A stretch of 64,000 nucleotides of DNA from Escherichia coli (GTDB lineage: Bacteria; Pseudomonadota; Gammaproteobacteria; Enterobacterales; Enterobacteriaceae), in the NCBI RefSeq assembly GCF_003334255.1, contig NZ_QOWU01000010.1; one strand, given 5' to 3'. Position numbers and translations under genes: made by a program. Each line of letters opens with the position of its first letter. The stretch's first letter is position 1. The notes under the pieces are model-generated. The model searched no databases and was not told the DNA's origin. It was given only the letters and a program-made list of their open reading frames with translations. Positions 15,334 through 58,365 of this stretch are shown piece by piece.

Positions 15334-18129
<2,796 letters not shown>

Positions 18130-20158: not shown

Positions 20159-23391
<3,233 letters not shown>

Positions 23392-39917: not shown

Positions 39918-41309
<1,392 letters not shown>

Positions 41310-41313
41310 CCCT

Positions 41314-41335
41314 GACGGCCTCTGCTGAGGCCGTC
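41314..41335. terminator. stem-loop between convergent pntB and tqsA
   Basis: GACGGCCTC-tgctg-AGGCCGTC hairpin immediately after pntB stop. Confidence 0.45.
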
Positions 41336-42240: not shown

Positions 42241-42367
42241 TTTTATCATTTAGTGTTTTTTGCTGTTTCATAATGTTTCAGGCTGTGCATTATGTTTTTG
42301 ATTATCAACAGATTTGTGATTTTCCTTGTTCCAGCTTGTTTCACGTTGTAGCCCTTTGTGCAACGAT

Positions 42368-42391
42368 CGGTGTAGTCACTGGTGTAGTCAC
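42368..42391. promoter_or_regulatory. tandem GGTGTAGTCAC repeat near left end (candidate integrase arm-type site)
   Basis: CGGTGTAGTCACTGGTGTAGTCAC; near-identical copy at 57001-57024 near the right end. Confidence 0.4.
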
Positions 42392-42415
42392 TTTTTCGTA
42401 AAGAGGGGGTAAAAC

Positions 42416-43645
42416 GTGAGCAGAGCAATGAACAAACTGAGCGATACCTTGCTAAGGAAACTTCATGGTAAGCCAGCGGAGAAAAACACGTTTTATAGTG
42501 ATGGCGGAAACCTGAGCGTGAAATATTTAACATCAGGGAAATTGACCTGGTATTTCACATACAGGGCCGGAACGGGAAGGGAGACACGACCCGAACGCAT
42601 TAAGCTGGGAAGTTATCCTGATCTGAGCCTGAAAGCAGCCAGGGAAAAAGCCGCACAGTGTCGCACATGGCTGGCTGAGGGGAAAAATCCACGTCATGAG
42701 ATGAATTACACCGTACAGGAAGCGTTAAAGCCCGTAACGGTTGGCGATGCGCTCACCTACTGGCTTGAGTATTACGTAAAGGAAAACCGCGTGGATTATA
42801 TCGCCCTGAAAAGGCGACTTAATAATCACGTAATACAGCAGATTGGTGCTATGCCGCTGGATAAATGCGAGCTACGGCACTGGCTGGCCTGTTTTGACCA
42901 GGTGGCAAAGCGAACGCCTGTTACTGCCGGATTCGTGCTACAGGCGTGCAAACAGGCGCTTAAGTTCTGCCGTAGGCGGCGCTATGCAATCAGCAACGTT
43001 CTGGACGATCTGAACGTGGCGGACGTTGGGAAAAAACCGGATATAAGCGAACGTGTCTTAAGTAACAAAGAACTTGGCGAATTATTGCAGGCACTGGACA
43101 AAAAAATATTTTCCCCTTACTACGTCGCGTTAATCCGCCTCCTGATTGTCTTCGGAGCCAGGACGGTAGAACTGAGGCTATCGGAGATCGGGGAGTGGGA
43201 TTTTACGGAAATGCTATGGACCGTTCCGAAGGAGCACAGCAAAACGAAGGTCGCAATATTCCGGCCCATACCGGAAGCGATCCTGCCGTTCGTCACGCAG
43301 CTGGTGGAGCAGAACAGGCACACGGGCTTATTGCTGGGGGAAGTGAAACAGGAGGCCAGCGTATCGCAGTATGGAAGATTAGCGCACAGGAGGCTTAATC
43401 ATCCTCACTGGTCACTGCATGACATCCGGCGCACCTTTACAACCATGCTGAACGATTTAGGCGTTGATCCGCATGTCGTGGAGCAGCTTACAGGTCATCA
43501 GATGCCAGGAATGCAGCGAGTTTATAATCATTCCCGTTATCTGGATGCTAAACGCAATGCGCTGGATATGTGGATGGAGCGGTTAGGGATACTGGCGGGA
43601 ACACATGAAAACGTAACCACGCTACCAGTAGCCAGAAGAAAATAA
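42416..43645 (+). CDS. int: tyrosine integrase, P4-type
   Basis: 409-aa ORF, GTG start after AGAGGGGG; N-terminal arm-binding domain, C-terminal catalytic region with HDIRRT and downstream Tyr (RVYNHSRY). Confidence 0.9.
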   Translation: MSRAMNKLSDTLLRKLHGKPAEKNTFYSDGGNLSVKYLTSGKLTWYFTYRAGTGRETRPERIKLGSYPDLSLKAAREKAAQCRTWLAEGKNPRHEMNYTVQEALKPVTVGDALTYWLEYYVKENRVDYIALKRRLNNHVIQQIGAMPLDKCELRHWLACFDQVAKRTPVTAGFVLQACKQALKFCRRRRYAISNVLDDLNVADVGKKPDISERVLSNKELGELLQALDKKIFSPYYVALIRLLIVFGARTVELRLSEIGEWDFTEMLWTVPKEHSKTKVAIFRPIPEAILPFVTQLVEQNRHTGLLLGEVKQEASVSQYGRLAHRRLNHPHWSLHDIRRTFTTMLNDLGVDPHVVEQLTGHQMPGMQRVYNHSRYLDAKRNALDMWMERLGILAGTHENVTTLPVARRK

Positions 43646-43832
43646 TTTTTTTCGTGTTTTTTCAGTATGCGCATACTGGATATGCGAACAGATACAACAT
43701 GCAACAATGAGCAACAATGCGGAACAACTACGAACAAGAGACGAAAAAGTGTACGGATTTATAAGTAGCTGATTTTTAATGTGTTACTGGTTTTTTATAC
43801 ACTAGCGAATCACTCTTTAAATAGCGAGAAAA

Positions 43833-43859
43833 AAGGCATGAAACAATATTTTATGCCTT
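43833..43859. terminator. stem-loop in int-alpA intergenic region (terminator-like, orientation ambiguous)
   Basis: AAGGCAT-gaaacaatatttt-ATGCCTT; T-run on the minus-strand side (TTTTTTCTCGC), weaker T-rich tract on plus side. Confidence 0.35.
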
Positions 43860-44019
43860 TGTATTAACATGAATTTAAATGATTTTATCCTGATTATTCC
43901 TGTTTCTGTAAACCATACGACCTCAACATTTGCCAACTCTGAATCATCCTGACACAATCAGACACATCCCAACGCAATAGAACACGAAATAACTCTTTAA
44001 GAAACGAAAGGGGGCAATA

Positions 44020-44208
44020 GTGTTAAGCACTGATCGGTTTATACGTGAAAAAGAATGCGAAAAGCTAACAGGCCTTAGCCGCTCATGCCGCTACCGCCTG
44101 GAAAAGGCCGGACAATTCCCATCACGTCGTAAACTTGGCGGTCGTTCCGTTGGCTGGTCTTTATCCGAGGTTCTGGCCTGGAAGGATAGCTGCAAGGCAG
44201 TTCATTAA
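44020..44208 (+). CDS. alpA: AlpA-family phage transcriptional regulator / excision activator
   Basis: 62-aa ORF, GTG start after AAGGGGG; MLSTDRFIREKECEKLTGLSRSCRYRLEKAGQFPSRRKLGGRSVGWSLSEVLAWK matches AlpA/Vis-type HTH proteins. Confidence 0.85.
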   Translation: MLSTDRFIREKECEKLTGLSRSCRYRLEKAGQFPSRRKLGGRSVGWSLSEVLAWKDSCKAVH

Positions 44209-44351
44209 TCACGCTGGCGGCACACAGCCGCCACACATCAATCATCTGAACACAGAGCTATAACCATGAAGATTGAATATACGCCAGAACGTGGGCGGGG
44301 ATTCGTTCGCCCTGGTGAGACTGGAAAACCACAAAATTGGGGTTTTTCAGG

Positions 44352-44388
44352 CATAAAAAAAGCGGCCCCGAAATGGAGCCGCCTTTCT
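44352..44388 (-). terminator. rho-independent terminator for minus-strand island transcript
   Basis: On minus strand: AAAGGCGGCTCC-atttc-GGGGCCGCTTT followed by T7. Confidence 0.45.
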
Positions 44389-44477
44389 GAACAGATAACA
44401 CGCTGCGCCGTTTGTGTGTGTGATCCCAAACATAAGCACGGGGATGATAGCCGCTATCAGGCTGGTGGGCAATGCAA

Positions 44478-44651
44478 TCAGTCTGGTTCAGTTCGTTGCC
44501 ATACCTGCAATGAGCGCTTTTCCCTGTACTCTTTAAGGAATTGCTCAAGGGCAAAAGCACATGGCGCGAATCTTTCTGATTCATGCTCTATCTTTCTGCG
44601 CCGTCTTTTCCGTGCCGGTGATAATGTTTTGGTCAATTCTTTATCGGTCAT
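44478..44651 (-). CDS. hypothetical small basic protein (57 aa)
   Basis: MTDKELTKTLSPARKRRRRKIEHESERF...; ATG preceded by AGGA; downstream of orf101 on same strand, before the minus-strand terminator. Confidence 0.3.
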   Translation of the reverse strand: MTDKELTKTLSPARKRRRRKIEHESERFAPCAFALEQFLKEYREKRSLQVWQRTEPD

Positions 44652-44708
44652 TGTGTTGTCCTGCATAGCAATGCGCCGTAATACCTCACACCACGGCGCT
44701 GATAGTGA

Positions 44709-45014
44709 TTATTCTGATTCTTTGGCCTTGCGGCGCTGTAGTTCTTCACGAGCGATGGCGATAAGTTGCCCGAGTTCTTCCGTAGCTTTAATACCAATTT
44801 TTTCCACTTGCGCCAATGCATCGAGAGAAGAAATCAGAGGATTTTCACTGCTTCCTTCTGCCTGGCGGCGGGCGATCTCCCCGCGCATGGCGGTTACTAT
44901 GAATCCGGCGTTGCTTTCGCCGTCCAGTTTTACGGATTCCATGCCATCAAAAGCATCATGTGGGATACGAATTGAAATCTGTTTTGATTTGTCGTTGATA
45001 GTGTTTTTTGCCAT
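44709..45014 (-). CDS. hypothetical protein (101 aa), candidate island regulator
   Basis: MAKNTINDKSKQISIRIPHDAFDG...; ATG preceded by AGGAGA; reads away from paired operator-like inverted repeats. Confidence 0.55.
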   Translation of the reverse strand: MAKNTINDKSKQISIRIPHDAFDGMESVKLDGESNAGFIVTAMRGEIARRQAEGSSENPLISSLDALAQVEKIGIKATEELGQLIAIAREELQRRKAKESE

Positions 45015-45036
45015 GTGCATTCTCCTAAACAAAAGA

Positions 45037-45112
45037 TGTGATTCAGTATACACAAAAAAGAATCACAAAAAACACTTGACCTGTGATTCAGTTGAATTTA
45101 ATTTAAATCACA
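45037..45112. promoter_or_regulatory. divergent promoter region with two operator-like inverted repeats
   Basis: TGTGATTC-N15-GAATCACA (45037-45067) and TGTGATTC-N16-AATCACA (45082-45112); TTGACC -35-like hexamer at 45076-45081. Confidence 0.55.
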
Positions 45113-45201
45113 CCTCAGTAAGAGGATGTAAACGACAACGCCCCGAACTGTTTGCGGCAGTAGCGGGGCGTCTAACCAAACCGTTAACAGGAGTAACGAT
45201 T

Positions 45202-45399
45202 ATGGCTGGAACACAGCATACCCCACGTCTGGCGCACACACAAACTGCCTTTGTGTGGCGTTTTCTGGCACTAAGTGCCGGAGAATCTCAAATCATCCAC
45301 GTAACCGCCTGGACGGAACGCGAAGCGCGTAGCCGTTGCCCGTCCGGTTGTGTTGCTGTATTCGCCGCCCGTATTCGTCAGGGGGTGTGCCATGCCTGA
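45202..45399 (+). CDS. small protein (65 aa), possibly Icd/Ash-like
   Basis: MAGTQHTPRLAHTQTAFVWRFLALSAGESQ...; ATG after AGGAG (45189-45193); first gene rightward of the operator region; family assignment from memory only. Confidence 0.45.
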   Translation: MAGTQHTPRLAHTQTAFVWRFLALSAGESQIIHVTAWTEREARSRCPSGCVAVFAARIRQGVCHA

Positions 45400-45712
45400 C
45401 ATGACCAATTACCAGTACCTGATTAATCCGCATTTTAACTGTGAGCATGATATTGCTAAAAAGGTTTATTCCGCTGCGGATGGGGCTACTGACAATATAT
45501 CAATGGCTGTTTCGTCAATTGGTAGCCTGATGTGGTATGCGTCAGAAAATAAGGAATATGACGAAAAGGCCATGCGCATTGATATGGGTAATATTGGTTT
45601 GTTACTGGCAATGCTTGGACATTTTGATATTTCGTTACGGTGCACCATTGAAAATGCCACAGATGCATTAAATGCTATAAAGAAAGCGAATACTGATTCA
45701 AATCGGGGATAA
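45392..45712 (+). CDS. hypothetical protein (106 aa)
   Basis: MPDMTNYQYLINPHFNCEHDIAKKVYSAADG...; start overlaps previous stop; no family recognised. Confidence 0.5.
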   Translation: MPDMTNYQYLINPHFNCEHDIAKKVYSAADGATDNISMAVSSIGSLMWYASENKEYDEKAMRIDMGNIGLLLAMLGHFDISLRCTIENATDALNAIKKANTDSNRG

Positions 45713-45718
45713 ATAATC

Positions 45719-46018
45719 ATGAGAACGTATTTATCTGGCTTTACTGCCAGCGGTTATGCACACCCCAAAATTATCCCCGGCGCTATTTATCTGGATAAGA
45801 ACGGTAACAGAGTAACGGTAAAAGAACTGATGTTTGACCGTGTGTATTTTATTCGTGATGGCTATTCATTTCATAGTTCGCTGAACGTGGAGATCTTTAT
45901 TAGCAGATTCCGGCGGGAAATCCCGCTTTCCAGAAATAACCATGTGTCATGTATGGATGTTGATAAAAAACTACAGGAACTGAAAAACATGATTGCCGCG
46001 TGGAGAGAGCAGAAATGA
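45719..46018 (+). CDS. hypothetical protein (99 aa)
   Basis: MRTYLSGFTASGYAHPKIIPGAIYLDKNGNRVTVKELMFDRVYFIRDGYSF...; stop overlaps primase start (ATGA). Confidence 0.5.
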   Translation: MRTYLSGFTASGYAHPKIIPGAIYLDKNGNRVTVKELMFDRVYFIRDGYSFHSSLNVEIFISRFRREIPLSRNNHVSCMDVDKKLQELKNMIAAWREQK

Positions 46019-47832
46019 AAAAAGCGCCAAATTTAAAACACCAGCCGCGTGACAAAATGACGGAAGTCATCATTTTTGCGGGTAGTGATGCGTGGGCACA
46101 TGCGAAGCAGTGGCAGGAACAGGACGGGCGACTGGCTGGCGATAACGTGCCACCTGTCTGGCTTGGAGAGCAACAACTTGCCGAACTGGACAACCTGCAA
46201 ATCGTACCGGACGGACGCTATCGCGTGCGTCTCTACCAGGCGGGGTTATTGCGTCCGGGGCTTGTTAATACCATCGGGCAGAAACTGGCAGCGGCAGGTG
46301 TCAGGGATGCTGATTATTACCCTGAAGGAATGCACAGCCAGAAACGGGAGAACTGGCGCGAATATCTGGAACGTGAGCGGGGAGAGCTGGCGGAAAAGAA
46401 AAAGGTAGTTGAACTGCCTGTAAAGAAAAAAGAGCGGGTAAAAGACGATAACGCTTCATCACTGGCGCTTAACCAGATGGGAGCAAGTCAACGCGGCGAA
46501 GTTCTCCTGGCACATTATGGCGGTGAACTGGCGATTCATGCTGACTCTGACACTGTTCACTATTACAACGGCGTTGTATGGGAGCCAGTACAGGATAAAG
46601 AATTACAGCGAGCTATGGCGCAGATTTTCATTGATGCGGAGATCAGCTATTCGCAGAACGCCATTAAATCGGCGGTCGATACCATGAAGTTAAGTTTGCC
46701 TGTAATGGGGAATACAGCCCGTAACCTGATTGGATTCAGTAACGGTGTTTTTGATACCCGGACAGGCGATTTTCGGGAGCATAACAAAAACGACTGGTTG
46801 TTAATTGCCAGTGAATTACCTTTCAGCCCACCAGCAGAGGGGGAAACGCTGGCAACACATGCGCCGAATTTCTGGAAGTGGTTACGCCGTTCGGTGGCTG
46901 AGAATGACCGCAAGGCGGATCGCGTACTGGCTGCATTATTCATGGTGCTGGCGAACCGGTACGACTGGCAGTTATTCATTGAGGTAACAGGTCCAGGGGG
47001 AAGTGGTAAAAGCGTGATGGCGGAGATTTGCACCATGCTGGCGGGTAAGGCCAACACGGTATCGGCAAGCATGAAGGCGCTGGAAGATGCCAGGGAACGC
47101 GCGTTAGTGGTTGGCTTTTCGCTGATTATCATGCCGGATATGACCCGTTACGCTGGTGATGGCGCAGGAATTAAGGCCATTACAGGCGGTGACAAGGTGG
47201 CAATCGACCCGAAGCATAAAGCCCCCTACTCAACACGCATTCAGGCGGTAGTGTTGGCGGTGAACAATAACGCCATGTCATTCAGTGACCGCAGCGGGGG
47301 GATTTCACGTCGTCGGGTGATATTCAATTTTTCGGAGGTTGTACCGGAAAACGAACGCGACCCCATGCTGGCAGAAAAAATAGAAGGAGAGCTGGCGGTT
47401 GTGATTCGCCACCTGCTTACTCGTTTTTCTGACCAGGACGCAGCTAAACGCCTGCTGTATGAGCAGCAGAAATCAGAAGAAGCTCTGGTGATAAAACGCG
47501 AGGGCGATTCGCTGGTGGACTTCTGCGGCTATCTCATGTCGTCGGTAATGTGTGATGGTCTGTTAGTGGGTAATGCCGAAATTATTCCGTTCAGTCCGCG
47601 CAGGTATCTTTATCACGCCTATCTGGCATATATGAGGGCACACGGATTCGGTAAACCTGTAACACTGACGCGCTTCGGTAAAGATATGCCGGGGGCAATG
47701 GCGGAATATGGCAGGGAGTATATGAAACGGAAAACGAAGCACGGTTTGCGTTCAAACGTGACACTGACGGAGGAATCAGAAGACTGGATGCCATCATGTG
47801 TATCGGTCACTAATGACGATAGCAAAAATTAA
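46015..47832 (+). CDS. P4 alpha-like replication protein (primase/NTPase, P-loop)
   Basis: 605-aa ORF with Walker A GPGGSGKS and Walker B-like region; followed immediately by TGTTCACC iteron cluster. Confidence 0.8.
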   Translation: MKKAPNLKHQPRDKMTEVIIFAGSDAWAHAKQWQEQDGRLAGDNVPPVWLGEQQLAELDNLQIVPDGRYRVRLYQAGLLRPGLVNTIGQKLAAAGVRDADYYPEGMHSQKRENWREYLERERGELAEKKKVVELPVKKKERVKDDNASSLALNQMGASQRGEVLLAHYGGELAIHADSDTVHYYNGVVWEPVQDKELQRAMAQIFIDAEISYSQNAIKSAVDTMKLSLPVMGNTARNLIGFSNGVFDTRTGDFREHNKNDWLLIASELPFSPPAEGETLATHAPNFWKWLRRSVAENDRKADRVLAALFMVLANRYDWQLFIEVTGPGGSGKSVMAEICTMLAGKANTVSASMKALEDARERALVVGFSLIIMPDMTRYAGDGAGIKAITGGDKVAIDPKHKAPYSTRIQAVVLAVNNNAMSFSDRSGGISRRRVIFNFSEVVPENERDPMLAEKIEGELAVVIRHLLTRFSDQDAAKRLLYEQQKSEEALVIKREGDSLVDFCGYLMSSVMCDGLLVGNAEIIPFSPRRYLYHAYLAYMRAHGFGKPVTLTRFGKDMPGAMAEYGREYMKRKTKHGLRSNVTLTEESEDWMPSCVSVTNDDSKN

Positions 47833-47846
47833 ACTTATGGAATAAC

Positions 47847-48076
47847 TGTTCACCACTGTTCACCCTGTCATAAATATCTTTTGTATCAGTATGTTATAGG
47901 GTGAACAGTTATTTATGAACTGTTCACCAAACTATTCACTGTTCACCTTTTTGATTGTTTATTGAGCTTCAAGGGTGAACAGTGGTGAATAGTTGGTGAA
48001 TAGTTTTTGTGAAACTGTTCACCCCTTAACATTATGAATTAAAAGATAAAATATCAAAAGGTGAACAGGTGAAGGG
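47847..48076. repeat. iteron cluster (TGTTCACC / GGTGAACA), candidate origin of replication
   Basis: At least 8 exact 8-mers in both orientations (47847, 47857, 47899, 47921, 47940, 47974, 48016, 48060) plus degenerate GGTGAATA copies in an AT-rich 230-bp non-coding stretch. Confidence 0.8.
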
Positions 48077-48119
48077 TTAAAACGCAAAAATTTTAATTTA
48101 CTGCTGTGAGATAAAGCCT

Positions 48120-48365
48120 ATGACAGCGAAGCACACAAAAAAATCACAATCGCACGCCCTTGATTTGACGGAACACTGGTTAAGGGTGTCGATAAAAATC
48201 ATCGACCGCAACGCCGGGGAAGGATATGCGAAAGCACATCCCGAACTGATTAGCTCATTCATGACAACGGCAGCTGCAAACTTTGCCACGCTGACAGAAC
48301 GGGAGATTGCCGAAGCGGAACAGGTGACAACCATCAACGTTAAAACCGGAGAGCAGACAGCATGA
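48120..48365 (+). CDS. hypothetical protein (81 aa)
   Basis: MTAKHTKKSQSHALDLTEHWLRVSIKIIDRNAG...; stop overlaps start of the SSB-like gene. Confidence 0.45.
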   Translation: MTAKHTKKSQSHALDLTEHWLRVSIKIIDRNAGEGYAKAHPELISSFMTTAAANFATLTEREIAEAEQVTTINVKTGEQTA

Positions 48366-48772
48366 CAGCACAGATAGCAGCTTACGGGCGGCTGGTGGAC
48401 GACCCGCAGGTAAAACAGACCAGTAAGGGCACACCGATGACGCTGGCGCGTATGGCGGTATCGTTGCCATGTAGTCAGGCGCAGGATGGGCAGGCGACGT
48501 TATGGCTATCGGTCATCGCATTTGGTAAGCAGGCCGACTTCCTGGCTAAACATCAAAAAGGCGACGTTGCCAGCGTATCCGGCACGATGCAGGTCAGCCA
48601 GTGGACCGGACAGAACGGGGAAACGCGGCAGGGTTATCAGGTTATTGCAGACAGCGTAATCAGTGCCCGTGCGGCACGTCCTGGCGGGAACAGACGCAAA
48701 ACCACAGGCACACAGGGTAATCAGCCACCAGCGGGAGGCGATGACCCTTACGGTGACGGTATTCCGTTCTGA
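48362..48772 (+). CDS. single-stranded DNA-binding protein-like (OB fold with acidic C-terminal tip)
   Basis: 136-aa ORF with Gly/Gln-rich linker and C-terminal DDPYGDGIPF resembling the SSB DDDIPF tail. Confidence 0.7.
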   Translation: MTAQIAAYGRLVDDPQVKQTSKGTPMTLARMAVSLPCSQAQDGQATLWLSVIAFGKQADFLAKHQKGDVASVSGTMQVSQWTGQNGETRQGYQVIADSVISARAARPGGNRRKTTGTQGNQPPAGGDDPYGDGIPF

Positions 48773-48782
48773 GGGGGTGGCG

Positions 48783-49055
48783 ATGGTACATGACCGCATA
48801 GCGGAAGAACTCGAGGCGAAAGGCTTTTACCGGAGGGCGGCGGCGCGATGGGGTGAAGTCATGCTGCTGGTGGAGACAGACAAGGAACGGCATCAGGTTA
48901 CGATGCGACGGCTGGAATGTTCCAGGAAGGCACAGAAGCCACCGGAGCCGCCGGATAACTTCGGAGACCTGAGAAAGGCAGTAGATCGCACTTATGCTGA
49001 AATGGGTATAGATGGTGTAAGCGATGAAATATGGCGTAATTACCCAGACAGCTAA
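48783..49055 (+). CDS. PerC-family transcriptional regulator-like protein
   Basis: 90-aa ORF MVHDRIAEELEAKGFYRRAAARWGEVMLLVETDKERHQVTMRRLEC...; the AExLExKGxxRRAAxRWxEVM pattern is typical of PerC/Pch proteins; ATG after GAGGGGG. Confidence 0.55.
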   Translation: MVHDRIAEELEAKGFYRRAAARWGEVMLLVETDKERHQVTMRRLECSRKAQKPPEPPDNFGDLRKAVDRTYAEMGIDGVSDEIWRNYPDS

Positions 49056-49060
49056 TCAAC

Positions 49061-49084
49061 AGCCGGAGAAATCCGGCTTTTTTT
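49061..49084 (+). terminator. rho-independent terminator
   Basis: AGCCGGAG-aa-ATCCGGCT hairpin followed by T7. Confidence 0.65.
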
Positions 49085-49179
49085 GCACCAGTTGAAACGG
49101 TATGGCGCATTACCGGGTTTTCGTCACGGTCAGGCATAGTTACTATCTGAAACAAACAGACACAACAGAGGAAAAAACA

Positions 49180-49404
49180 ATGCCGATGAAATTTGATGAG
49201 ATATTAAAACAGCGTGATAAATACCATGCTGACAACATGGAGACGATGAGCATCAATGATTACCGCGCATTCCTGGAGACGGGCGCACTGATTGAAAAGG
49301 ATCAGCATGGTTTTGTGAGATGTGCTCTGTCCGGTGAAATGCTGGCGGTAAATCCTGAACAGATAGATGCATTGATAGAATTTCTGAAAGGGATCAGGGA
49401 CTGA
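49180..49404 (+). CDS. hypothetical protein (74 aa)
   Basis: MPMKFDEILKQRDKYHADNMETMSINDYRAFLETG...; ATG after AGGAAAAAA; followed by a terminator. Confidence 0.45.
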   Translation: MPMKFDEILKQRDKYHADNMETMSINDYRAFLETGALIEKDQHGFVRCALSGEMLAVNPEQIDALIEFLKGIRD

Positions 49405-49414
49405 GCACGCATAC

Positions 49415-49436
49415 AGCCGGAGCAATCCGGCTTTTT
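49415..49436 (+). terminator. rho-independent terminator (near-duplicate of 49061-49084)
   Basis: AGCCGGAG-caa-TCCGGCT hairpin followed by T5. Confidence 0.65.
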
Positions 49437-49696
49437 GTCATTTTTTGTAAATTATTTGTTCGTGGTTGTTCCACGTTGTTCACTGACAGGATCGGCATAT
49501 TTTACCCGAACTGAATCATGAGTATTCTCGCCCGTGGTGCCAGGACGCTGGGGCCACTTTCCCGCCTGTTAATGTGCTCGCCAATATTCATTACCAGGCG
49601 GGAAAACGATCGGTGCGATTGCTGATTTCCTTATGAAAAACGGTTGAGTTTTTGCCGCGTCCTGGAGTTCCTTACTTAACCCCAGGACTTTTTTTT

Positions 49697-50854
49697 ATGC
49701 CGAGAATAATCGAATTACGCCAGCAGAAAACCGCCATTAAAAATCAGATGCGCGACATGCTGGAGAACGCGGAAAAAGAAAACCGCAGCCTTAACGATGC
49801 AGAGGGCGCAAAATTTGACGAATTACGCGCTAAAGCTGAATCCCTCGATAAAGACATTTCCCGCCTTGAAGCCATTGCAGACGAAGAGCGCAGCAAGCCA
49901 GGTAAAAGCAGCCAGACCACTGACCCGGCAGAACTCCGCAACTACATCCTGACAGGTGAAACCCGCGCATTAAGTACAGGCGTTCCCGCTGATGGTGGTT
50001 ATACCGTTATCCCCGAACTGAACACCGAAATCATGCGAATGCTGACGGATGAATCCACCATGCGCCGCATCTGTACCGTGAAGAAAATCAGCAGCAACGA
50101 GTTTAAGCAGCTTGTTTCCGCTGGCGGTGCGACCGTTAACCACGGTGAAGAGGGTAAGACACGCGAACAGACCAGCACCCCGCAGATTAACGAGGTGAGC
50201 ATTAAGCTGTATCCGGTCTATGCGTACCCGCGCACCACACAGGAAATCGTGGATTTTTCCGATGTGGACATCCTTTCATGGCTGACGGGTGAGATTGGCG
50301 ACACCTTCACGGAAACCGAAGAAAGCGATCTGGTTGTGGGCGACGGTGACAAAAAAGCAAAAGGTTTTTTATCCGTACCCCGTGCAGAGAAGAACGACAA
50401 AGAGCGTGATTTTGGTACGTTGCAGGTAATTAAACCTTCCGAATCTCTGGCGTGGACATCTGCGGACCCGCTGATCGACCTGAAATTTGCATTACGTAAA
50501 AAATACCGCAAAAACGCGGTCTGGGTGGTTAACTCCACGACGGCGGCAAAACTTCAGAAGGTGAAGAACGCGAACGGTGATTACATCTGGCGCGACCGTT
50601 TACAGGCGGGTGATCCTGATACGTTGCTGGGCCTTCCGGTCGAATATCTGGAGTTTATGCCTGATAACGTTATTGCCCTGGGTGACTTCAAACGCGGTTA
50701 CTACATTGTTGATCACGAAACAGGTGTTCGCACCAGACCGGACAACCTCACAGAGCCGGGCTTCATCAAAATTTTCACGCAGAAATATTTAGGCGGTGGC
50801 GTGGTGGATTCGAACGCGATCAAGATTCTGGAACTGCCACAGGACGACGATTAA
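49697..50854 (+). CDS. major capsid protein, HK97 fold, with N-terminal coiled-coil (delta/scaffold-like) region
   Basis: 385 aa from ATG 49697 (MPRIIELRQQKTAIKNQMRDMLENAEKENRSLNDAEGAKFDELRAK...); capsid-family core follows. Confidence 0.85.
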   Translation: MPRIIELRQQKTAIKNQMRDMLENAEKENRSLNDAEGAKFDELRAKAESLDKDISRLEAIADEERSKPGKSSQTTDPAELRNYILTGETRALSTGVPADGGYTVIPELNTEIMRMLTDESTMRRICTVKKISSNEFKQLVSAGGATVNHGEEGKTREQTSTPQINEVSIKLYPVYAYPRTTQEIVDFSDVDILSWLTGEIGDTFTETEESDLVVGDGDKKAKGFLSVPRAEKNDKERDFGTLQVIKPSESLAWTSADPLIDLKFALRKKYRKNAVWVVNSTTAAKLQKVKNANGDYIWRDRLQAGDPDTLLGLPVEYLEFMPDNVIALGDFKRGYYIVDHETGVRTRPDNLTEPGFIKIFTQKYLGGGVVDSNAIKILELPQDDD

Positions 50855-50864
50855 CAGCATACAG

Positions 50865-50893
50865 AAGGGGCTTAAAAGCCCCTTTAGTGTTTT
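50865..50893 (+). terminator. stem-loop after capsid gene (attenuator/terminator)
   Basis: AAGGGGCTT-aaa-AGCCCCTT followed by TAGTGTTTT. Confidence 0.5.
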
Positions 50894-51466
50894 ATGGGTG
50901 AAAAAATTATGAAGAGTATGGAAATCCGGTCATCGGAAATCACCACCAGCGCCAGCAACACGCTTACAGGCTACGTTGTTCGCTGGGATAAGCTTTCAGA
51001 GCTGCTATGGGGGGAGTTTTACGAAAAATTCCAGCGGGGAGCGTTTACTGAATGGCTTGCGGCGGGTAATGACGTTCGCGGCCTGTATGAGCATGACCAC
51101 AGCATGTTGCTGGGGCGTACCCGTTCCGGCACGCTGAAACTGGAAGAGGACGAAACAGGGTTACGCTTTGAACTGACCCCACCGGATACCAGTACAGGGC
51201 GCGACGTTATCGAACTGGTTAAGCGTGGGGACATCTCGGGGATGAGCTTTGGCTTTCGCTCCCGTAAGGATGTATGGGATACCACAACAGATCCATGCGT
51301 GCGCACCGTGCTGGTGGCGGAACTGTACGAAATTACCGTTACATCGGTACCGGCTTACCCCGATTCCGGCGTGGAGCTGGCCCGCCGTTCCCTGTATGAG
51401 CAGCACCCCGAAAAAATGCCGCGTGCGGATAATCGCCGCTGGTGGGTGGATTTAGCGGGGGTGTGA
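50894..51466 (+). CDS. prohead maturation protease, HK97 family
   Basis: 190-aa ORF (true start may be ATG 50909); GAFTEWLAAGNDVRGLYEHDHSMLLGRTRSGTLKLEEDETGLRFELTPPDTSTGRD...GDISGMSFGF matches HK97-type prohead protease. Confidence 0.8.
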   Translation: MGEKIMKSMEIRSSEITTSASNTLTGYVVRWDKLSELLWGEFYEKFQRGAFTEWLAAGNDVRGLYEHDHSMLLGRTRSGTLKLEEDETGLRFELTPPDTSTGRDVIELVKRGDISGMSFGFRSRKDVWDTTTDPCVRTVLVAELYEITVTSVPAYPDSGVELARRSLYEQHPEKMPRADNRRWWVDLAGV

Positions 51467-51467
51467 T

Positions 51468-52679
51468 ATGTGGCTTTTCAGAAGAAAAAAAGAGCAGCGC
51501 AGCATGACGCTTGATGAATTTATGGCGCTGGCTGGCACATCGAACACGGGGGCGGGTGAGTACGTATCATCGGGGACAGCGGAATCACTGCCCGCCGTCA
51601 TGAACGCCGTGACGGTCATCTCTGAGGCGGTGGCTACCATGCCGTGTTACCTGTACCTGGTACGCAATGAGAAGGGGAAGGAGGCCCGCGAGTGGCTTGA
51701 TTCTCATCCGGTCGATCACATCCTCAACGAGCGCCCGAACGCGTGGCAGACTCCCTACCAGTTTAAGCGAATGATGATCCGCCACTGCCTGTTAAACGGT
51801 AATGCTTATGCGGTGATTCAGTGGGGGCGTGATGGTTTTCCGGTGGCTTTACATCCTTACCCGCCGCAGTCGGTGAACGTGGAGCAGACAGGCGAACACA
51901 ACTGGCGCTACTGCATCACTGACGCCTACACCGGAAACACCCGCAACTATTTACCGTGGGAGGTTCTCCACCTTCGTTACTCCACGGATGACGGTTTTAT
52001 GGGGCGCTCACCTGTAACCATCTGCCGCGAATCGCTGGGGCTTGGGCTGGCCCAACAACGCCACGGCGCGAGCGTGATGCGTGATGGCATGATGGCGGCA
52101 GGGGTTATCACGTCAGGCGAATGGCTGGACGGCGTGAAGGGCAAACAGGCATTAGCCGCACTGGAACGCTACAAAGGGGCCAGAAACGCCGGAAAAACGC
52201 CCATCCTTGAAGGGGGTATGAGCTATCAGCAGCTGGGCATGAGTAATCAGGATGCTGAATGGCTGGCCTCCCGTCGCTTCACCATTGAAGACATCGCCCG
52301 AATGTTCAACGTCTCGCCGATTTTTCTGCAGGAATACAGCAACAGCACCTACAGCAATTTCAGCGAGGCAAGCCGCGCATTTCTCACCATGACAATGCGC
52401 CCGTGGCTGGCGAACTTTGAGCAGCAGATAAAAAACGCCCTGCTGGTGGCCTCGCCTGTACCTGGTATCCGGTATCAGGTGGAGTTTGACAGCGCGGACC
52501 TGTTACGGGCCACACCTGGCGAACGCTTTGCCACCTATGAACGCGGCATCAAATCCGGCGTTATGTGCCCGAACGAAGCCCGCGAACGTGAAGGGCTGTC
52601 CCCGCGTGATGGTGGTGATGAGTTCAGCCAGGCATGGAAACAGGAAGTAAAAATCAGCGAGGGAGAAAAACCGGAATGA
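51468..52679 (+). CDS. portal protein, HK97 family
   Basis: 403-aa ORF; N-terminal region ...MPCYLYLVRNEKGKEAREWLDSHPVDHILNERPNAWQTPYQFKRMMIRHCLLNGNAYAV typical of HK97-like portals. Confidence 0.8.
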   Translation: MWLFRRKKEQRSMTLDEFMALAGTSNTGAGEYVSSGTAESLPAVMNAVTVISEAVATMPCYLYLVRNEKGKEAREWLDSHPVDHILNERPNAWQTPYQFKRMMIRHCLLNGNAYAVIQWGRDGFPVALHPYPPQSVNVEQTGEHNWRYCITDAYTGNTRNYLPWEVLHLRYSTDDGFMGRSPVTICRESLGLGLAQQRHGASVMRDGMMAAGVITSGEWLDGVKGKQALAALERYKGARNAGKTPILEGGMSYQQLGMSNQDAEWLASRRFTIEDIARMFNVSPIFLQEYSNSTYSNFSEASRAFLTMTMRPWLANFEQQIKNALLVASPVPGIRYQVEFDSADLLRATPGERFATYERGIKSGVMCPNEAREREGLSPRDGGDEFSQAWKQEVKISEGEKPE

Positions 52680-53014
52680 ACATAGGGCGACTGCGTGACA
52701 GGGTAACGATTCAGACCCTGAAACAGACCAGGGATATAACCGGCGAAATACTCGAAACGTGGGAGGACGGTCACACACTCTGGGCAAGCGTGAACATGAT
52801 CAGCAGCAAGGAGGCCATTTCATCGGGTGCAGAGCTGGCGATTGGTACCGTAAGGATCTGGATACGGTACCGGAAGGACATCAATGCCACCAGCCGGATA
52901 AAGGTCAGTACGGGGCCGCTGGCGGGGCGTGTACTGAATATCATCGGGCAGCCGCTGCCGGATGCCGCCAGGACACGCCTTGAAATTCTTTGTCGTGAGG
53001 GCGCGGAAAAATGA
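52676..53014 (+). CDS. head-tail adaptor / head closure protein
   Basis: 112 aa from ATG 52676 overlapping portal stop (MNIGRLRDRVTIQTLKQTRD...). Confidence 0.65.
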   Translation: MNIGRLRDRVTIQTLKQTRDITGEILETWEDGHTLWASVNMISSKEAISSGAELAIGTVRIWIRYRKDINATSRIKVSTGPLAGRVLNIIGQPLPDAARTRLEILCREGAEK

Positions 53015-53307
53015 CAGAAGAACTTATCACCCTGGAAGAAGTGAAACTCCATTGCCGCATCGATGGCGACGAGGAAGACCAGTTAATCAGCGGATACATC
53101 GCCGCATCGCTTGAGGCGTGCCAGATACACATAGGCAGGCGCTTTGATGACGGGCTGGAGTTCACGCCAGCCATAAAGATTGGCTGCATGATGTTTATCG
53201 CTCACCTGTATGAAAATCGCCAGATTGTCGCGGATAACGCAAAAACACGCGTACCCATGACGATTGGTGCACTCTGGACGGCTTACCGTGATGTGGGGGT
53301 GTACTGA
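53011..53307 (+). CDS. gp6-like head-tail connector protein
   Basis: 98-aa ORF MTEELITLEEVKLHCRIDGDEEDQLISGYIAASLEACQIHIGRRF... Confidence 0.65.
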   Translation: MTEELITLEEVKLHCRIDGDEEDQLISGYIAASLEACQIHIGRRFDDGLEFTPAIKIGCMMFIAHLYENRQIVADNAKTRVPMTIGALWTAYRDVGVY

Positions 53308-53747
53308 TGCCGTGGCAACCATTAAGACGATGCACAGAACCAGGCTGTAACAGGCGCGTGAAGTCCGGCAAGTGTGAGGAGCACAGGCGGGCGGCATGGC
53401 GTGCAGAGGATGCCAGACGAGGACACCGCCGCGCGCGTGGGTACTCCAGACAGTGGGACAAATACCGCGCCATGTATCTGAGTAAAAACCCGTTATGCGT
53501 GCGATGCCTTGAGAAGGGGATATATACGCCCGCCGTGGTGGTGGATCACATTATCCCGATTAATGGCGGTGATGATGTTCTCTTCTGGCCCGAATGGAAC
53601 CATCAGCCATTGTGCCAGGCGTGCCATAACCAGAAAACGAAATGGCTTGATCCGGCAACAAAAAGCAAGCGTGCCGCAGGTGGATTTCGTGAAGAGGAAG
53701 AACGGGCCGCTAACCGCAATAACTGGATGTATGACGCTGATGAATGA
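53307..53747 (+). CDS. HNH endonuclease (packaging-associated)
   Basis: 146-aa ORF with Cys pairs (CTEPGCNRRVKSGKCEEH, CVRC) and HNH core VVDHIIPINGG...NHQPLCQACHNQKT. Confidence 0.85.
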   Translation: MPWQPLRRCTEPGCNRRVKSGKCEEHRRAAWRAEDARRGHRRARGYSRQWDKYRAMYLSKNPLCVRCLEKGIYTPAVVVDHIIPINGGDDVLFWPEWNHQPLCQACHNQKTKWLDPATKSKRAAGGFREEEERAANRNNWMYDADE

Positions 53748-53913
53748 GCGGGAACAAAACCGCCTTATCCGTGGACTTATAAGGCAGCGTGACGCATGGA
53801 AGACACAGGAAACAGGGCATAAAGATAAAGCGTCAGGACGCGCAGAACGCATCACAGCGAAGCGATTAACCGACCGTGACCGCGAGGTTATGGAATGTTT
53901 CCGCAATCGCTGA
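53740..53913 (+). CDS. possible small charged protein (57 aa), translationally coupled to HNH gene
   Basis: ATG overlaps HNH stop; MNEREQNRLIRGLIRQRDAWKTQETGHKDKASGRAERITAKRLTDRDREVMECFRNR; no RBS evidence. Confidence 0.25.
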   Translation: MNEREQNRLIRGLIRQRDAWKTQETGHKDKASGRAERITAKRLTDRDREVMECFRNR

Positions 53914-54035
53914 TGAGGCTGTATGACGGGGTGGGGGGCGTTTTCAGGACAAACCCGACCCCGCCGGGCACCGACCGCCTCCTCAAATTTTTATGCACGG
54001 GAATTTTTTGAAAAATAATCTGACGAAAAATAAGC
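53914..54035. other. candidate cos/packaging-initiation region between HNH and terS
   Basis: Non-coding stretch with G/C-rich blocks (ACGGGGTGGGGGGCG, CCCGACCCCGCCGGGCACCGACCGCC) directly upstream of terS; HNH-cos-TerS arrangement is typical of HK97-like cos packaging. Confidence 0.3.
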
Positions 54036-54392
54036 ATGGCAAGACCACCGAAAGCCCCCGCCTACCTGGATGACATCGCCGTGAAGCAGTGGCGGGAAAA
54101 ATCGCGGCAGCTTGCGGAACGGGGAGACCTGACCCCCGCCGACTGGAGCAATCTGGAACTGTATTGTGTCAACTACTCCATTTACCGGAAAGCCGTCGCA
54201 GACCTTGCGGCGCGCGGGTTCAGCATTGTTAACAGTCAGGGCGGCGAGAGCAGAAACCCCGCATTAAGCGCGAAATCAGACGCTGAAAGGGTGATGATAA
54301 AAATGGCCTCCTTGCTCGGTTTTGACCCGATAAGCCGCCGTAAAAACCCACCGGAAACAGAAGAAGAGGACGAGCTTGACCGCCTGGAATAA
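54036..54392 (+). CDS. terminase small subunit (P27-like)
   Basis: 118-aa ORF MARPPKAPAYLDDIAVKQWREKSRQLAERGDLTPADWSNLELYCVNYSIYRKA...; overlaps terL start. Confidence 0.7.
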   Translation: MARPPKAPAYLDDIAVKQWREKSRQLAERGDLTPADWSNLELYCVNYSIYRKAVADLAARGFSIVNSQGGESRNPALSAKSDAERVMIKMASLLGFDPISRRKNPPETEEEDELDRLE

Positions 54393-56037
54393 GTACGCAG
54401 AAGACGTAAAAACGGGCAAAATTCAGGCCTGTAAACGGTTAAAACAGGCCGTTAAACGGTACTTTTCGGACCTTAAAAGCCCCCTTTACACGTTCGATCG
54501 TGAGGTTGTGGATCGGTTTATTGCCTTTTCCAGGGTGTGCCCGCACGTAAAAGGGCCGATGCGTGGCAGACCCATTGAGCTGGAGCCGTGGCAGCAGTTC
54601 GCCTTTGCGTGCATCCTCGGCTTTAAGGTTAAGGCCACCGGACGGCGCAAATATACGAGCGCCTTTATCGAAGTGCCGCGCAAAAATGCTAAATCAACGA
54701 CCGCCGCGATTCTGGCTAACTGGTTTCTGATTATGGAGAACGGTCAGCAGGATATTTACACCGCAGCGGTGAGCCGTGACCAGGCGAGGATCGTATTTGA
54801 TGATGCGCGTCAGATGTGCATTTTATCCCGACCGTTACGCAGGCGGGTGAATATTCAGGCGCATAAGGTGATACACCCGAAAACCAACAGCCTGTTAAAG
54901 CCGCTGGCAGCAAAAGCGGCAACTATCGAGGGCACAAACCCCAGTCTTTCTATCGTGGACGAATACCACCTACACCCCGACAACGGCGTATATTCTGCGC
55001 TTGAACTGGGGATGGGGGCACGTCCCGAAGGGCTGTTATTTGCCATTACCACATCGGGAAGTAACGTCGTTTCAGCCTGTAAGCAGCATTATGATTATTG
55101 CTGCCAGATCCTGGACGGCGAAGAGGTTAACGAATCGCTTTTTGTGCTGATTTACGAACTGGACGACGAAAACGAGGTTGATGATCCGGAGATGTGGATA
55201 AAGGCGAACCCTAATATCGATGTTTCCGTGGATCGTGAAAAACTGGCCTCAACCATTCAGAAAGCGCGGGGTATTCCGTCGCAATGGGTGGAGATGATGA
55301 CAAAGCGATTTAATATCTGGTGTCAGGGGACTACCCCGTGGATGGGTAATGGTGCATGGGCTGAGTGTGCCGGAACGTTCACGGAGGAAGATTTACACGG
55401 TCAGGAGTGTTACGCGGGGCTGGACTTATCATCAACCAGCGATATTTCCAGCGTGTGCTATGCCTTTCCGGTCGGTAAAACCATTATGATGATTTCCCGT
55501 CATTATCTGCCGGAGTTCCAGCTACAGAACCCCGCCAATAAAAACCGCGCTGTCTATCGTCAGTGGGCTAAAGCAGGCTGGATACGCACAACGCCTGGCG
55601 ACTGCATTGATTACGACCGGATCAGAGATGACATCATGCAGGACGCGGAGAAATTTAATATCAGGCTGGTGGGCTTTGATACGTGGAACGCCACGCATCT
55701 CAGAACGCAATTACAGGGGGCAGGTTTTGAGGTGGAGCCGTTCCCGCAAACCTACCTCAGATTCAGTCCGGCGGCGAAATCGTTCGAAGTTTTTGTTAAC
55801 CGCAGGGTGATTGTGCATCGTGGCGATCCGGTGTTGTCCTGGTCGATGAGTAACGTCGTGATGCAGAGTGACGCGAACGCCAATATCAAGCCGAACAAGA
55901 AAAAATCACCGAACAAGATAGACCCGAGCGTGGCGGCGCTGATGGCGTTTGGTACATTCCAGGCAGAGCATGAGGATTTTGCTTTTGATATAAGCGACAG
56001 CCACCGCCAGAAACTGGAAGAATTTAGCGGGGTGTAA
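54376..56037 (+). CDS. terminase large subunit
   Basis: 553-aa ORF with ATPase P-loop region (VPRKNAKSTTAA) and C-terminal nuclease-type domain. Confidence 0.85.
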   Translation: MTAWNKYAEDVKTGKIQACKRLKQAVKRYFSDLKSPLYTFDREVVDRFIAFSRVCPHVKGPMRGRPIELEPWQQFAFACILGFKVKATGRRKYTSAFIEVPRKNAKSTTAAILANWFLIMENGQQDIYTAAVSRDQARIVFDDARQMCILSRPLRRRVNIQAHKVIHPKTNSLLKPLAAKAATIEGTNPSLSIVDEYHLHPDNGVYSALELGMGARPEGLLFAITTSGSNVVSACKQHYDYCCQILDGEEVNESLFVLIYELDDENEVDDPEMWIKANPNIDVSVDREKLASTIQKARGIPSQWVEMMTKRFNIWCQGTTPWMGNGAWAECAGTFTEEDLHGQECYAGLDLSSTSDISSVCYAFPVGKTIMMISRHYLPEFQLQNPANKNRAVYRQWAKAGWIRTTPGDCIDYDRIRDDIMQDAEKFNIRLVGFDTWNATHLRTQLQGAGFEVEPFPQTYLRFSPAAKSFEVFVNRRVIVHRGDPVLSWSMSNVVMQSDANANIKPNKKKSPNKIDPSVAALMAFGTFQAEHEDFAFDISDSHRQKLEEFSGV

Positions 56038-56050
56038 TGAGGTCAGCAGC

Positions 56051-56332
56051 ATGACAGAAGCCGAAATAACGGGATTAATCCGCCGCGTTGCCGGAATCAG
56101 CCAGCAGGCTGACGAACAGGCCACGCAGCCGGACAGCGTGACAGCCGAAAACTATGCGCGTGTTGTTGCTGAGGTGATGCGCCGTGATGGTATAGAACTT
56201 AATGGCGTGGATATGCGCAACATACGAACCAGAGTTCTTGAGTTGCTGGCCTACCGTCGCCGCGTGGAGATGTATCGGGAGAAGGAGAAAATAACGTACC
56301 ACTGGAAGAAGCCGGAGCGGTTGCGGCGGTAA
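56051..56332 (+). CDS. hypothetical protein (93 aa)
   Basis: MTEAEITGLIRRVAGISQQADEQATQPDSVTAENYARVVAEVMRRDGIEL...; ATG after GAGGT, 14 bp downstream of terL stop. Confidence 0.5.
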   Translation: MTEAEITGLIRRVAGISQQADEQATQPDSVTAENYARVVAEVMRRDGIELNGVDMRNIRTRVLELLAYRRRVEMYREKEKITYHWKKPERLRR

Positions 56333-56419
56333 CTGGTTGATATTCCCGACGGACCAAAAATGGGTGGCTACATCCCTCGCTTCTGAGGACTGTTAACAAG
56401 CTGCCTGAAAGACAGTCAC

Positions 56420-56890
56420 AAACTACGAAATTTTCGCAGTTTAATTAATGATCAGCTTAATCGCTAACCCGCTGATATTTTCGGAAACCTCAATTTGAGG
56501 AAGTCGGCGCGGTAACTCGCTGAACTTTAAGCAAAGTGCAAAATTGCGCTTGCTGAATAATCATTATGATTACGCAGATGATTAAGGAATGACCGAAGGC
56601 GGAAATTCGCCTGTGGTTAATGGGGGAGTTGCAGATCTGCAACTCGACCATGAAACTACGGAAACTACCCGTAGTTTGGGTAGTAAGAGTAACACCCAGA
56701 TTTTGGGTCTTACTCGTGATACCCAAATTTGGGGTATCAGTGGCAACCATAACGACTTTCGTTACGGTTGATGCTTTTACCCCATTGGGGGAAAGGTATT
56801 ACGATAATCATAACACCTACCGAACAGGTAAAGCCCACCAGCCTGATTAACGTTTAACCGGAAAAAAATTCCGGTAGGTGGGGATCCCCA
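56420..56890. other. palindrome-dense non-coding region at island right end
   Basis: Ten dyad-symmetric elements including perfect 20-bp palindrome GAGTTGCAGATCTGCAACTC (56626-56645) and three TACCC..GGGTA-type dyads about 25 bp apart; overlapping small ORFs lack RBS. Confidence 0.6.
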
Positions 56891-57000
56891 TATCGACATT
56901 AACGCCCCTCATGAATTGGTGCGCTTCCCCCTGGAAAGATGATCCGCCTGTATATTTCTTGTGTCTATTTGTTCCACGTTGTTTCATACAGTGCACCGAA

Positions 57001-57024
57001 CGGTGTAGTCACTGGTGTAGTCAT
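57001..57024. promoter_or_regulatory. tandem GGTGTAGTCA repeat near right end (candidate integrase arm-type site)
   Basis: CGGTGTAGTCACTGGTGTAGTCAT, counterpart of 42368-42391. Confidence 0.4.
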
Positions 57025-57097
57025 TTTGCGATTTTTGGCACTTTTTGCGGTGAAAATTATTTAATTAAATCAACGTGTTATGTGAAATAAGTTATAT

Positions 57098-57106
57098 ATA
57101 ACAGCA
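57098..57106. repeat. right copy of 9-bp direct repeat (att core)
   Basis: ATAACAGCA, identical to 42232-42240. Confidence 0.7.
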
Positions 57107-57234
57107 ATAAATAATGCGAGAATAAACGGCACGATGATCTCGGCGGCAAAACGGATACCGCAGAGAATAATGACCAGCATTCCCAACATAATGACGATTT
57201 TTAGGCCATTGAGCGTGATGATCGGCTTTGCCAT
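57098..57234 (-). pseudogene. tqsA: tqsA 5' fragment (codons 1-46) separated from the rest of the gene
   Basis: Minus-strand ATG at 57234 encodes [46 protein letters not shown] then runs into island DNA (YNLFHITR, stop). Confidence 0.85.
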
Positions 57235-58327: not shown

Positions 58328-58365
58328 TGAAGACGCTGCCCGCGCTGTCGGGCAGCGTTTGAACA

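Follow-up and report, generated by a model that had tools for sequence, protein, structure and literature searches.

Gene content and boundaries of the island

We analysed a 64-kb stretch of Escherichia coli DNA (contig NZ_QOWU01000010.1, hereafter called the window) in which the tqsA gene of the core chromosome is interrupted by an island of phage-like genes. As listed in Table 1, the island carries an integrase gene, alpA, a small regulatory region, a replication gene followed by iterons, a gene for a single-stranded DNA-binding protein (SSB), and then head and packaging genes in the order capsid-protease-portal-connectors-hnh-terS-terL, which is the order found in proteobacterial phage-inducible chromosomal islands of the capsid-forming type (cf-PICIs). 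We consider it very probable that this island is a cf-PICI of the EcCIEDL933 lineage and that its tyrosine integrase, which is of P4 type, inserted it at a 9-bp core within tqsA. The prototype cf-PICI is EcCIEDL933 from E. coli O157:H7 EDL933; experiments showed that it builds its own small capsids and borrows only the tails of helper phages (bioRxiv 10.1101/2022.09.08.507074).

The extent of the island was determined by aligning the left and right junctions with the empty locus of strain K-12. It was found that the island occupies 42241-57106, a length of 14,866 bp counting one copy of the core, and the coordinates proposed for the block in an earlier note on this DNA were exact. In a three-way alignment of the K-12 attB and both junctions, the crossover from chromosome to island fell inside the 9-bp direct repeat ATAACAGCA. 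The earlier note had correctly assigned the block to the tqsA locus but had placed it between genes; the insertion is in fact inside tqsA, which is split at about codon 45 of 344, and no tRNA gene is involved at the insertion site. The tqsA gene, which encodes the AI-2 exporter, is rebuilt at neither junction, and therefore the host tqsA is probably inactivated in every strain that has a satellite at this site. The 3′ part of tqsA is 100% identical in E. coli G6/7 and in strain 300709. The flanks of the island are core genes, from fumC to mlc, with 99.6-100% identity to sequenced E. coli, and the remaining window runs through rsxC, uidA and malX.

The genes named in the earlier note were all present as uninterrupted open reading frames (ORFs) with matches to families in Pfam, PHROG and NCBIfam. 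The left end encodes an integrase, AlpA and a primase-replicase. The island has its own capsid, prohead protease, portal, connector and adaptor proteins, recognized by PHROG and NCBIfam and equal in length to those of the prototype, as well as its own HNH, TerS and TerL proteins. None of the 28 island ORFs scanned with PHROG matched a tail or lysis family, the longest gene-free stretch is 774 bp, and the neighbours on both sides are core genes, in agreement with the earlier statement that the block has no tail or lysis genes; the outcome that the note had named as refuting, such genes within the block or next to it, was therefore not observed. In size the element is a satellite, with roughly a third of the length of a helper genome, and it sits in a specific att site with direct repeats. 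Using the SatelliteFinder models, we found that all 11 of the 11 cfPICI core components are present and that the forbidden tail and holin components are absent. Therefore, the island is assigned to the Type A cfPICI class, which has been reported in 13% of Enterobacteriaceae genomes. The model for classical PICIs forbids portal, connector and adaptor proteins, and these, along with TerL, are all encoded here.

Table 1. Features of the island and its junctions (positions in the window; lengths of proteins in amino acids, aa).
Feature	Position	Strand	Evidence
tqsA 3′ part, N-terminus missing	41334-42239	-	G6/7 pseudogene annotation (RefSeq); K-12 alignment
attL copy, 9-bp core ATAACAGCA	42232-42240		three-way alignment with K-12 attB
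Left attP arm, two tandem GGTGTAGTCA repeats (42369, 42381; 12 bp apart)	42319-42394	+	76-nt repeat with 56952-57027
Tyrosine integrase, P4-type architecture, 409 aa	42416-43645	+	Pfam Arm-DNA-bind_3 and Phage_integrase; phrog_1; 91% to EcCIEDL933 integrase
AlpA	44020-44208	+	Pfam Phage_AlpA PF05930, 5.6e-18; 98% to EcCIEDL933 AlpA
Recombinant patch, ~1.1 kb	44266-45400		segment-wise blastn vs 300709 classical PICI, G6/7 cf-PICI and EcCIEDL933
Leftward ORF, 62 aa	44478-44666	-	phrog_21027, 1.6e-15; 100% identical in EcCIEDL933
YlcI/YnfO-family protein, 101 aa	44709-45014	-	phrog_6522, 2.1e-57, full length; NCBIfam YlcI_YnfO_N NF041551
Icd-like small protein	45202-45399	+	NCBIfam phage_ICD_like; phrog_29966, phrog_1743
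Hypothetical protein, 106 aa	45392-45712	+	phrog_15327, 2.2e-71
DUF4222 protein	45719-46018	+	PGAP annotation in G6/7; phrog_285
Replication protein (primase-helicase), 605 aa	46015-47832	+	Pfam D5_N, DUF5906, Pox_D5
Predicted replication origin with TGTTCACC iterons (eight exact copies, in either orientation, and degenerate ones)	47847-48067		motif count; P4 comparison
Hypothetical protein, 81 aa	48120-48365	+	phrog_1231
SSB	48362-48772	+	phrog_44; 100% to EcCIEDL933
PerC-family regulator	48783-49055	+	Pfam PerC, 3.4e-45; 100% to EcCIEDL933
Hypothetical protein, 74 aa	49180-49404	+	phrog_1957; 100% to EcCIEDL933
Major capsid protein, HK97 fold	49697-50854	+	385/385 identical to PDB 9GYI chain B
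HK97-family prohead protease	50894-51466	+	phrog_80, 7.6e-67; 98.9% to EcCIEDL933
Portal protein	51468-52679	+	phrog_12, 1.1e-116; PDB portal matches; 99.3% to EcCIEDL933
Head closure protein Hc1, gp16_SPP1 type	52676-53014	+	phrog_25; TIGR01563; 96.4% to EcCIEDL933
Head-tail adaptor/connector Ad1	53011-53307	+	phrog_40; TIGR01560; 100% to EcCIEDL933
HNH endonuclease, packaging cofactor	53307-53747	+	phrog_144, 8.1e-45; 99.3% to EcCIEDL933
Hypothetical protein, 60 aa	53731-53913	+	phrog_3173; 100% to EcCIEDL933
Candidate cos region, G+C-rich, 122 bp, between HNH-side genes and terS	53914-54035		inferred position
Small terminase TerS, P27 family	54036-54392	+	phrog_83; 100% to EcCIEDL933
Large terminase TerL	54376-56037	+	phrog_9, 1.8e-179; 98% to EcCIEDL933
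hyp93, 93 aa, last gene (conserved among PICIs and cf-PICIs in E. coli)	56051-56332	+	phrog_1561
Unannotated, highly structured non-coding right end, 620 bp	56333-56950		fold score; between last gene and right attP arm
Sharply bounded 123-nt palindromic module	56621-56743		perfect palindrome GAGTTGCAGATCTGCAACTC and three more hairpins
Right attP arm, two tandem GGTGTAGTCA repeats (57002, 57014)	56952-57027	+	76-nt repeat with 42319-42394
tqsA 5′ fragment, start codon and about 45 codons, C-terminus missing	57091-57234	-	G6/7 annotation; K-12 alignment
attR copy, 9-bp core ATAACAGCA	57098-57106		three-way alignment with K-12 attB

Comparison with EcCIEDL933

The sequence of EcCIEDL933 was taken from the EDL933 genome, where it lies between roxA and phoQ. 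The island region 48180-56344, from the SSB gene to terL and hyp93, has the same gene order and 97.7% DNA identity to EcCIEDL933. For the 12 proteins encoded between SSB and hyp93, inclusive, length did not differ from that of the EcCIEDL933 counterparts, and identity was 87-100%, or 96-100% when hyp93 is left aside; for relatedness of the packaging module to EcCIEDL933, the authors of the cf-PICI work used 50-90%. The capsid, SSB, PerC, adaptor, TerS and the 74- and 60-aa hypothetical proteins are 100% identical, the protease, portal, HNH and TerL proteins 98-99%, the head closure protein 96%, AlpA 98% and the integrase 91%. Because the lengths are equal, none of the genes that transfer was shown to need (Alqurainy et al., bioRxiv 10.1101/2022.09.08.507074) has a frameshift. 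The capsid match in Table 1, PDB 9GYI, was obtained by cryo-EM and models the capsid of EcCIEDL933, which is a T=4 shell of 47.5 nm according to He et al. (bioRxiv 10.1101/2025.02.11.637232). Taken together, the capsid identity, the full SatelliteFinder core and the resemblance of the module to EcCIEDL933 support the cf-PICI interpretation of the earlier note.

The attP arms are shared with EcCIEDL933, and the intergenic region between the HNH-side genes and terS is almost identical, because the 122-bp gap upstream of terS differs at just 3 positions. Cos-type packaging has been reported for cf-PICIs (He et al., bioRxiv 10.1101/2025.02.11.637232), and by analogy the cos site is most likely in this gap.

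The two elements differ in several respects. The prototype is located between roxA and phoQ, whereas the island is in tqsA, and a core region of ~25 bp differs. The replication protein of the prototype is a DUF927 protein, in contrast to the P4-alpha-type protein and TGTTCACC iterons of the island, and an Arc-like gene follows alpA in the prototype where the island has a YlcI/YnfO-family gene. The right-end repeats differ, the island has an additional 123-nt module, and it is ~0.6 kb shorter than the prototype (14,866 bp vs 15.4-15.5 kb).

On the strength of these alignments, the element is one that was already known: the family was published in 2022-2023, and the morphogenesis module is nearly identical to that of a prototype with a solved capsid. 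Beyond annotation, therefore, this copy adds little and raises no new question about how cf-PICIs work. What it does show is modular exchange, of a regulatory patch and of a replicon, in which the partners are a cf-PICI and a classical PICI with a common att site.

Attachment sites and recombinant regulatory patch

Homology to EcCIEDL933 begins at 42240/42241 and ends ~27 bp before the right core, which fits a shared attP arm combined with a different core. Four exact copies of GGTGTAGTCA were found, at the ends of the island only. These arm repeats read GGTGTAGTCAC in elements at the tqsA site, including the island, and GGTGTAGTTAA in elements at the roxA-phoQ site (EcCIEDL933 and EcCICFT073), so that arm-repeat variant, integrase allele and att site change together. 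The attP of P4 has a like layout in its sequence record, in which tandem arm repeats of 12 bp flank the core, and because of this shared layout the tandem repeats are most likely the arm-type sites of the integrase.

The earlier gene list was accurate as far as it went, but it left out a small module that resembles a regulator, runs leftward and separates alpA from the icd-like gene. AlpA is the master activator in Gram-negative PICIs, according to published PICI work. In the leftward module, the 101-aa protein had no significant match in Pfam or PDB; its YlcI/YnfO-family label also appears in the matching annotation of other genomes. Its gene stands where EcCIEDL933 and G6/7 have a 63-aa Arc-like gene. 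He et al. (bioRxiv 10.1101/2025.02.11.637232) described four variable regions in cf-PICIs, one of which is the gene downstream of alpA.

Segment-wise comparison of this region showed that the patch 44266-45400 has 99.6-100% identity to a classical PICI in strain 300709 (13617-14745 of its locus), which is also inserted at tqsA and has an integrase gene with 99.6% DNA identity to that of the island. The same patch gave 88-98% identity or no match in blastn comparisons with the G6/7 cf-PICI and EcCIEDL933. It looks as though satellites of two types, with integrase and att site in common, have recombined here.

A 377-aa plus-strand ORF at 44266-45399 was considered as a gene and rejected: it arises from read-through into the icd-like frame and is without a family match over 311 aa, whereas both minus-strand ORFs beneath it match families. 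RefSeq has a plus-strand "hypothetical protein" of 247 aa in EDL933 and G6/7 that overlaps both minus-strand ORFs and is probably a mis-annotation; it is the counterpart of this ORF, which in the window extends to 377 aa.

Replication module

The earlier note had described the replication protein as a P4 alpha-like primase followed by iterons. The helicase and origin-binding part agrees with that description, since residues 145-595 are 50.7% identical to P4 alpha, and so do the iterons, but no likeness was found for the primase domain. The first 143 aa (46015-46443) instead share 71% identity with the N-terminal part (locus 5539-5913) of the 710-aa DUF927 protein of EcCIEDL933. In these proteins a conserved N-terminal domain appears, from the alignments, to be joined to helicase and origin-binding modules that can be exchanged.

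Within 221 bp directly downstream of the replication gene there are eight exact TGTTCACC octamers. In the whole window, the octamer occurs 11 times compared to an expectation of ~2, and a count of 11 was reached in 0 of 100 shuffles. In the P4 record, the same octamer is the unit of the annotated type-1 repeats in ori and crr, and the P4 crr is likewise directly downstream of alpha.

Distribution and relatives

Among 5,426 complete genomes of E. coli, 72 contain at least 80% of the island. Closest to it are three isolates from human faeces, G6/7, G1/2 and G8, which are 100% identical over 46019-57106 and both flanks, and the next nearest are many O26 and O111 Shiga toxin-producing E. coli strains at ~98%. 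Among the best-ranked of the 5,426 genomes, none matched the island in one piece, and the best coverage was 97-98% in at least two pieces. The best of 50,697 phage records, a satellite-sized "induced prophage" of 16.5 kb, gave 21% coverage at 77% identity.

At 1-25000 of the window, the core chromosome (rsxC, uidA, malX, dtpA and their neighbours) shows 100% identity to that of E. coli G1/2, G8 and G6/7, and because of this the source strain is, by the sequence, a very close relative of these human faecal isolates. Yet the island differs from the G1/2, G8 and G6/7 islands by the recombinant patch. The cf-PICI at tqsA in G6/7, G1/2, G8 and the O26/O111 genomes has the same att site as the island and int and alpA genes that are 99-99.5% identical; in contrast, 44716-45162 is replaced there and 45163-45400 is only 89% identical.

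The classical PICIs EcCICFT073 and that of strain 300709 share with the island the int-alpA-(YlcI/YnfO)-icd-DUF4222-primase-SSB front end, a last gene of the hyp93 family and the attP arm. They differ in being without portal, protease, connector, HNH and TerL proteins. EcCICFT073 has in addition lambda-type cosN sequences, and it depends on helper capsids and terminase; exact lambda cosN copies are at 7559-7570 and 8298-8309 of its locus. Homologues of hyp93 hold the same last position in the four classical PICI loci that were compared, including 300709 and EcCICFT073. The possibility that hyp93 is a homologue of Rpp was rejected because it had no PDB match, although the Rpp structures 6HLK and 6HN7 have been deposited. 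We also observed that classical PICIs at the tqsA, tRNA-Ile and roxA-phoQ sites have genes annotated as "major capsid protein" and "head decoration protein" and no portal or TerL gene (300709 locus 17776-22102; EcCICFT073 locus 5463-8655).

Proposed life cycle and alternative explanations

The gene content of the island, its intactness and boundaries, the iterons and the identity to the prototype were read directly from the DNA; for induction, packaging and the use of tails we infer a course from EcCIEDL933, in which experiments demonstrated alpA-dependent induction, essential packaging genes and dependence on tails (bioRxiv 10.1101/2022.09.08.507074). In such a course, a helper phage in lytic growth would switch on alpA, and AlpA would activate the island genes, followed by excision, which would need Int. 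The primase-helicase would then replicate the island from the TGTTCACC iteron origin. The late operon would produce a 47-nm T=4 capsid of HK97 fold from the capsid protein, protease and portal of the island, and its TerS, TerL and HNH proteins would cut and package unit-length island DNA at cos, and only its own DNA. The head closure and adaptor proteins would finish a tail-less, DNA-filled capsid, which would be released and become infectious only once joined to a siphovirus tail. In published work on the prototype, the tail choice of a cf-PICI is set by the adaptor and connector. Given that the island and EcCIEDL933 share 100% identity in the adaptor and 96% in the head closure protein, the use of HK106-type tails, and not HK022 tails, is predicted here.

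The earlier note had also suggested that the accessory ORFs are candidate payloads for interference with phages. This was not supported: ten accessory ORFs gave no match to known defence families in PADLOC, and no interference by EcCIEDL933 with HK106 and HK446 was seen, the titre of these helpers being unreduced (bioRxiv 10.1101/2022.09.08.507074).

Some points weigh against the interpretation of the island as an active cf-PICI of the EcCIEDL933 lineage. The excision, replication and packaging of this copy would follow the prototype by analogy, and the position of cos is one that we infer. The replicon is, in its sequence, different from that of the prototype; the patch adjacent to alpA has a YlcI/YnfO-family gene instead of the Arc-like gene, and regulation or helper range could differ as a result; and there is no helper prophage within the 64-kb window. 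One alternative is that the island is a cf-PICI by descent but is now an immobile or orphaned passenger of the chromosome, owing to the swapped patch, the swapped replicon or the want of a suitable helper. The origin of the patch 44266-45400 in a classical PICI is consistent with this, as are the lack of a helper prophage in the window and the published observation that none of the 17 prophages of EDL933 induces EcCIEDL933. However, all ORFs of the island are intact, the att core and arm repeats have been kept, and near-identical islands in unrelated lineages (O26, O111 and commensals) argue for recent mobility. Furthermore, tail-less capsids of the prototype are produced even when no phage induces it. 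We regard immobility as improbable.

It is much less probable still that the block is an ordinary defective prophage from which the tail and lysis genes were deleted. Although its head and packaging genes belong to phage families, the island scans found no tail, lysis or CI/Cro-type immunity modules or remnants of these, nor any pseudogenes or gene remnants, and only 14.9 kb lie between the conserved att boundaries. Classical PICIs share the int-alpA-primase front end, the best phage record is itself of satellite size and matches poorly, as given above, and the prototype has been established experimentally as a satellite. The remaining explanation, which we find hardly credible, is a P4-like satellite that remodels the capsids of P2-type helpers. 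The likenesses to P4 are the arm-binding domain of the integrase, the tandem 12-bp arm repeats that flank the core, the AlpA/Vis-type regulator, the alpha-like helicase/origin-binding region (51%) and the TGTTCACC iterons downstream of the replication gene as in P4 crr. In contrast to P4, the N-terminal 144 aa of the replication protein are not alpha-like, a P2 cos is missing, and no island ORF matches sid, psu, delta or epsilon; in addition, genes for capsid, portal and terminase, absent from P4, are present in the island.

The significance of a cf-PICI of the EcCIEDL933 lineage at this locus is that such elements carry DNA between strains, and even between genera, by means of tail-less capsids that take up compatible phage tails, and that the strain carries a potentially mobilisable element.

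Non-coding right end

The DNA between hyp93 and the right attP arm (56333-56950) had no Rfam, PHROG or PGAP feature and is also unannotated in the relatives, and the ORFs in it had no PHROG match. A scan of 41300-58400 by Rfam E-value gave just chance miRNA-like matches on the palindromic iterons. As predicted by RNA folding, a 301-nt part of the right end folds far better than shuffled controls (z = -7.8). Repeats of CGGTAACYNGYTGATATT, each followed by a short hairpin, are present in 3 copies at 56327-56527, compared to 5 copies in EcCIEDL933 (locus 16245-16680), and the first copy in the island overlaps the stop codon of hyp93. The GC hairpin stems of the right end vary in a compensatory way between elements (CGCAAAATTGCG, CCCAAAAATGGG and GGCGGAAATTCGCC).

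The 123-nt module within this region recurs in 63 IMG/VR contigs at 86-94% identity, sometimes twice per contig, and is found whole or in part in ~1,300 E. coli genomes. It occurs in many E. coli PICIs, and wherever its context was examined it was downstream of a PICI hyp93 homologue. Sequence comparison showed that the module is absent from EcCIEDL933 and EcCICFT073; because it is missing from a functional prototype, the module is taken from this comparison to be dispensable for the life cycle. An RNAalifold analysis of 31 distinct copies yielded mostly invariant positions or one-sided (wobble) changes, few compensatory pairs and conflicting signals from the two strands, and on these alignments the covariation is too weak to call the module an RNA.

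A lambda-type cos was considered for the right end and rejected, because there is no cosN-like sequence in the island and the cosN copies of EcCICFT073 are upstream of its hyp93 homologue. An alternative proposal is that the right end is an undescribed functional non-coding element common to E. coli PICIs and cf-PICIs and, separately, that the swapped YlcI/YnfO-type patch re-targets the island to other inducing helper phages; we think this unlikely. Candidates for the nature of such a right-end element would be a miniature mobile element, an array of protein-binding sites or a regulatory RNA.

Additional observations upstream of and within the late genes

For a PerC-like gene identical to that of the island, no effect on LEE1 was reported (PMC11773190). 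Downstream of the PerC-family gene, near-identical terminator-like hairpins at 49059-49082 and 49413-49436 (ACAGCCGGAG[A/C]AATCCGGCTTTTT) flank the 74-aa ORF upstream of the capsid gene, and a further hairpin is at 50864-50885, just after the capsid gene. These hairpins could be attenuators that set the expression levels of the late operon.

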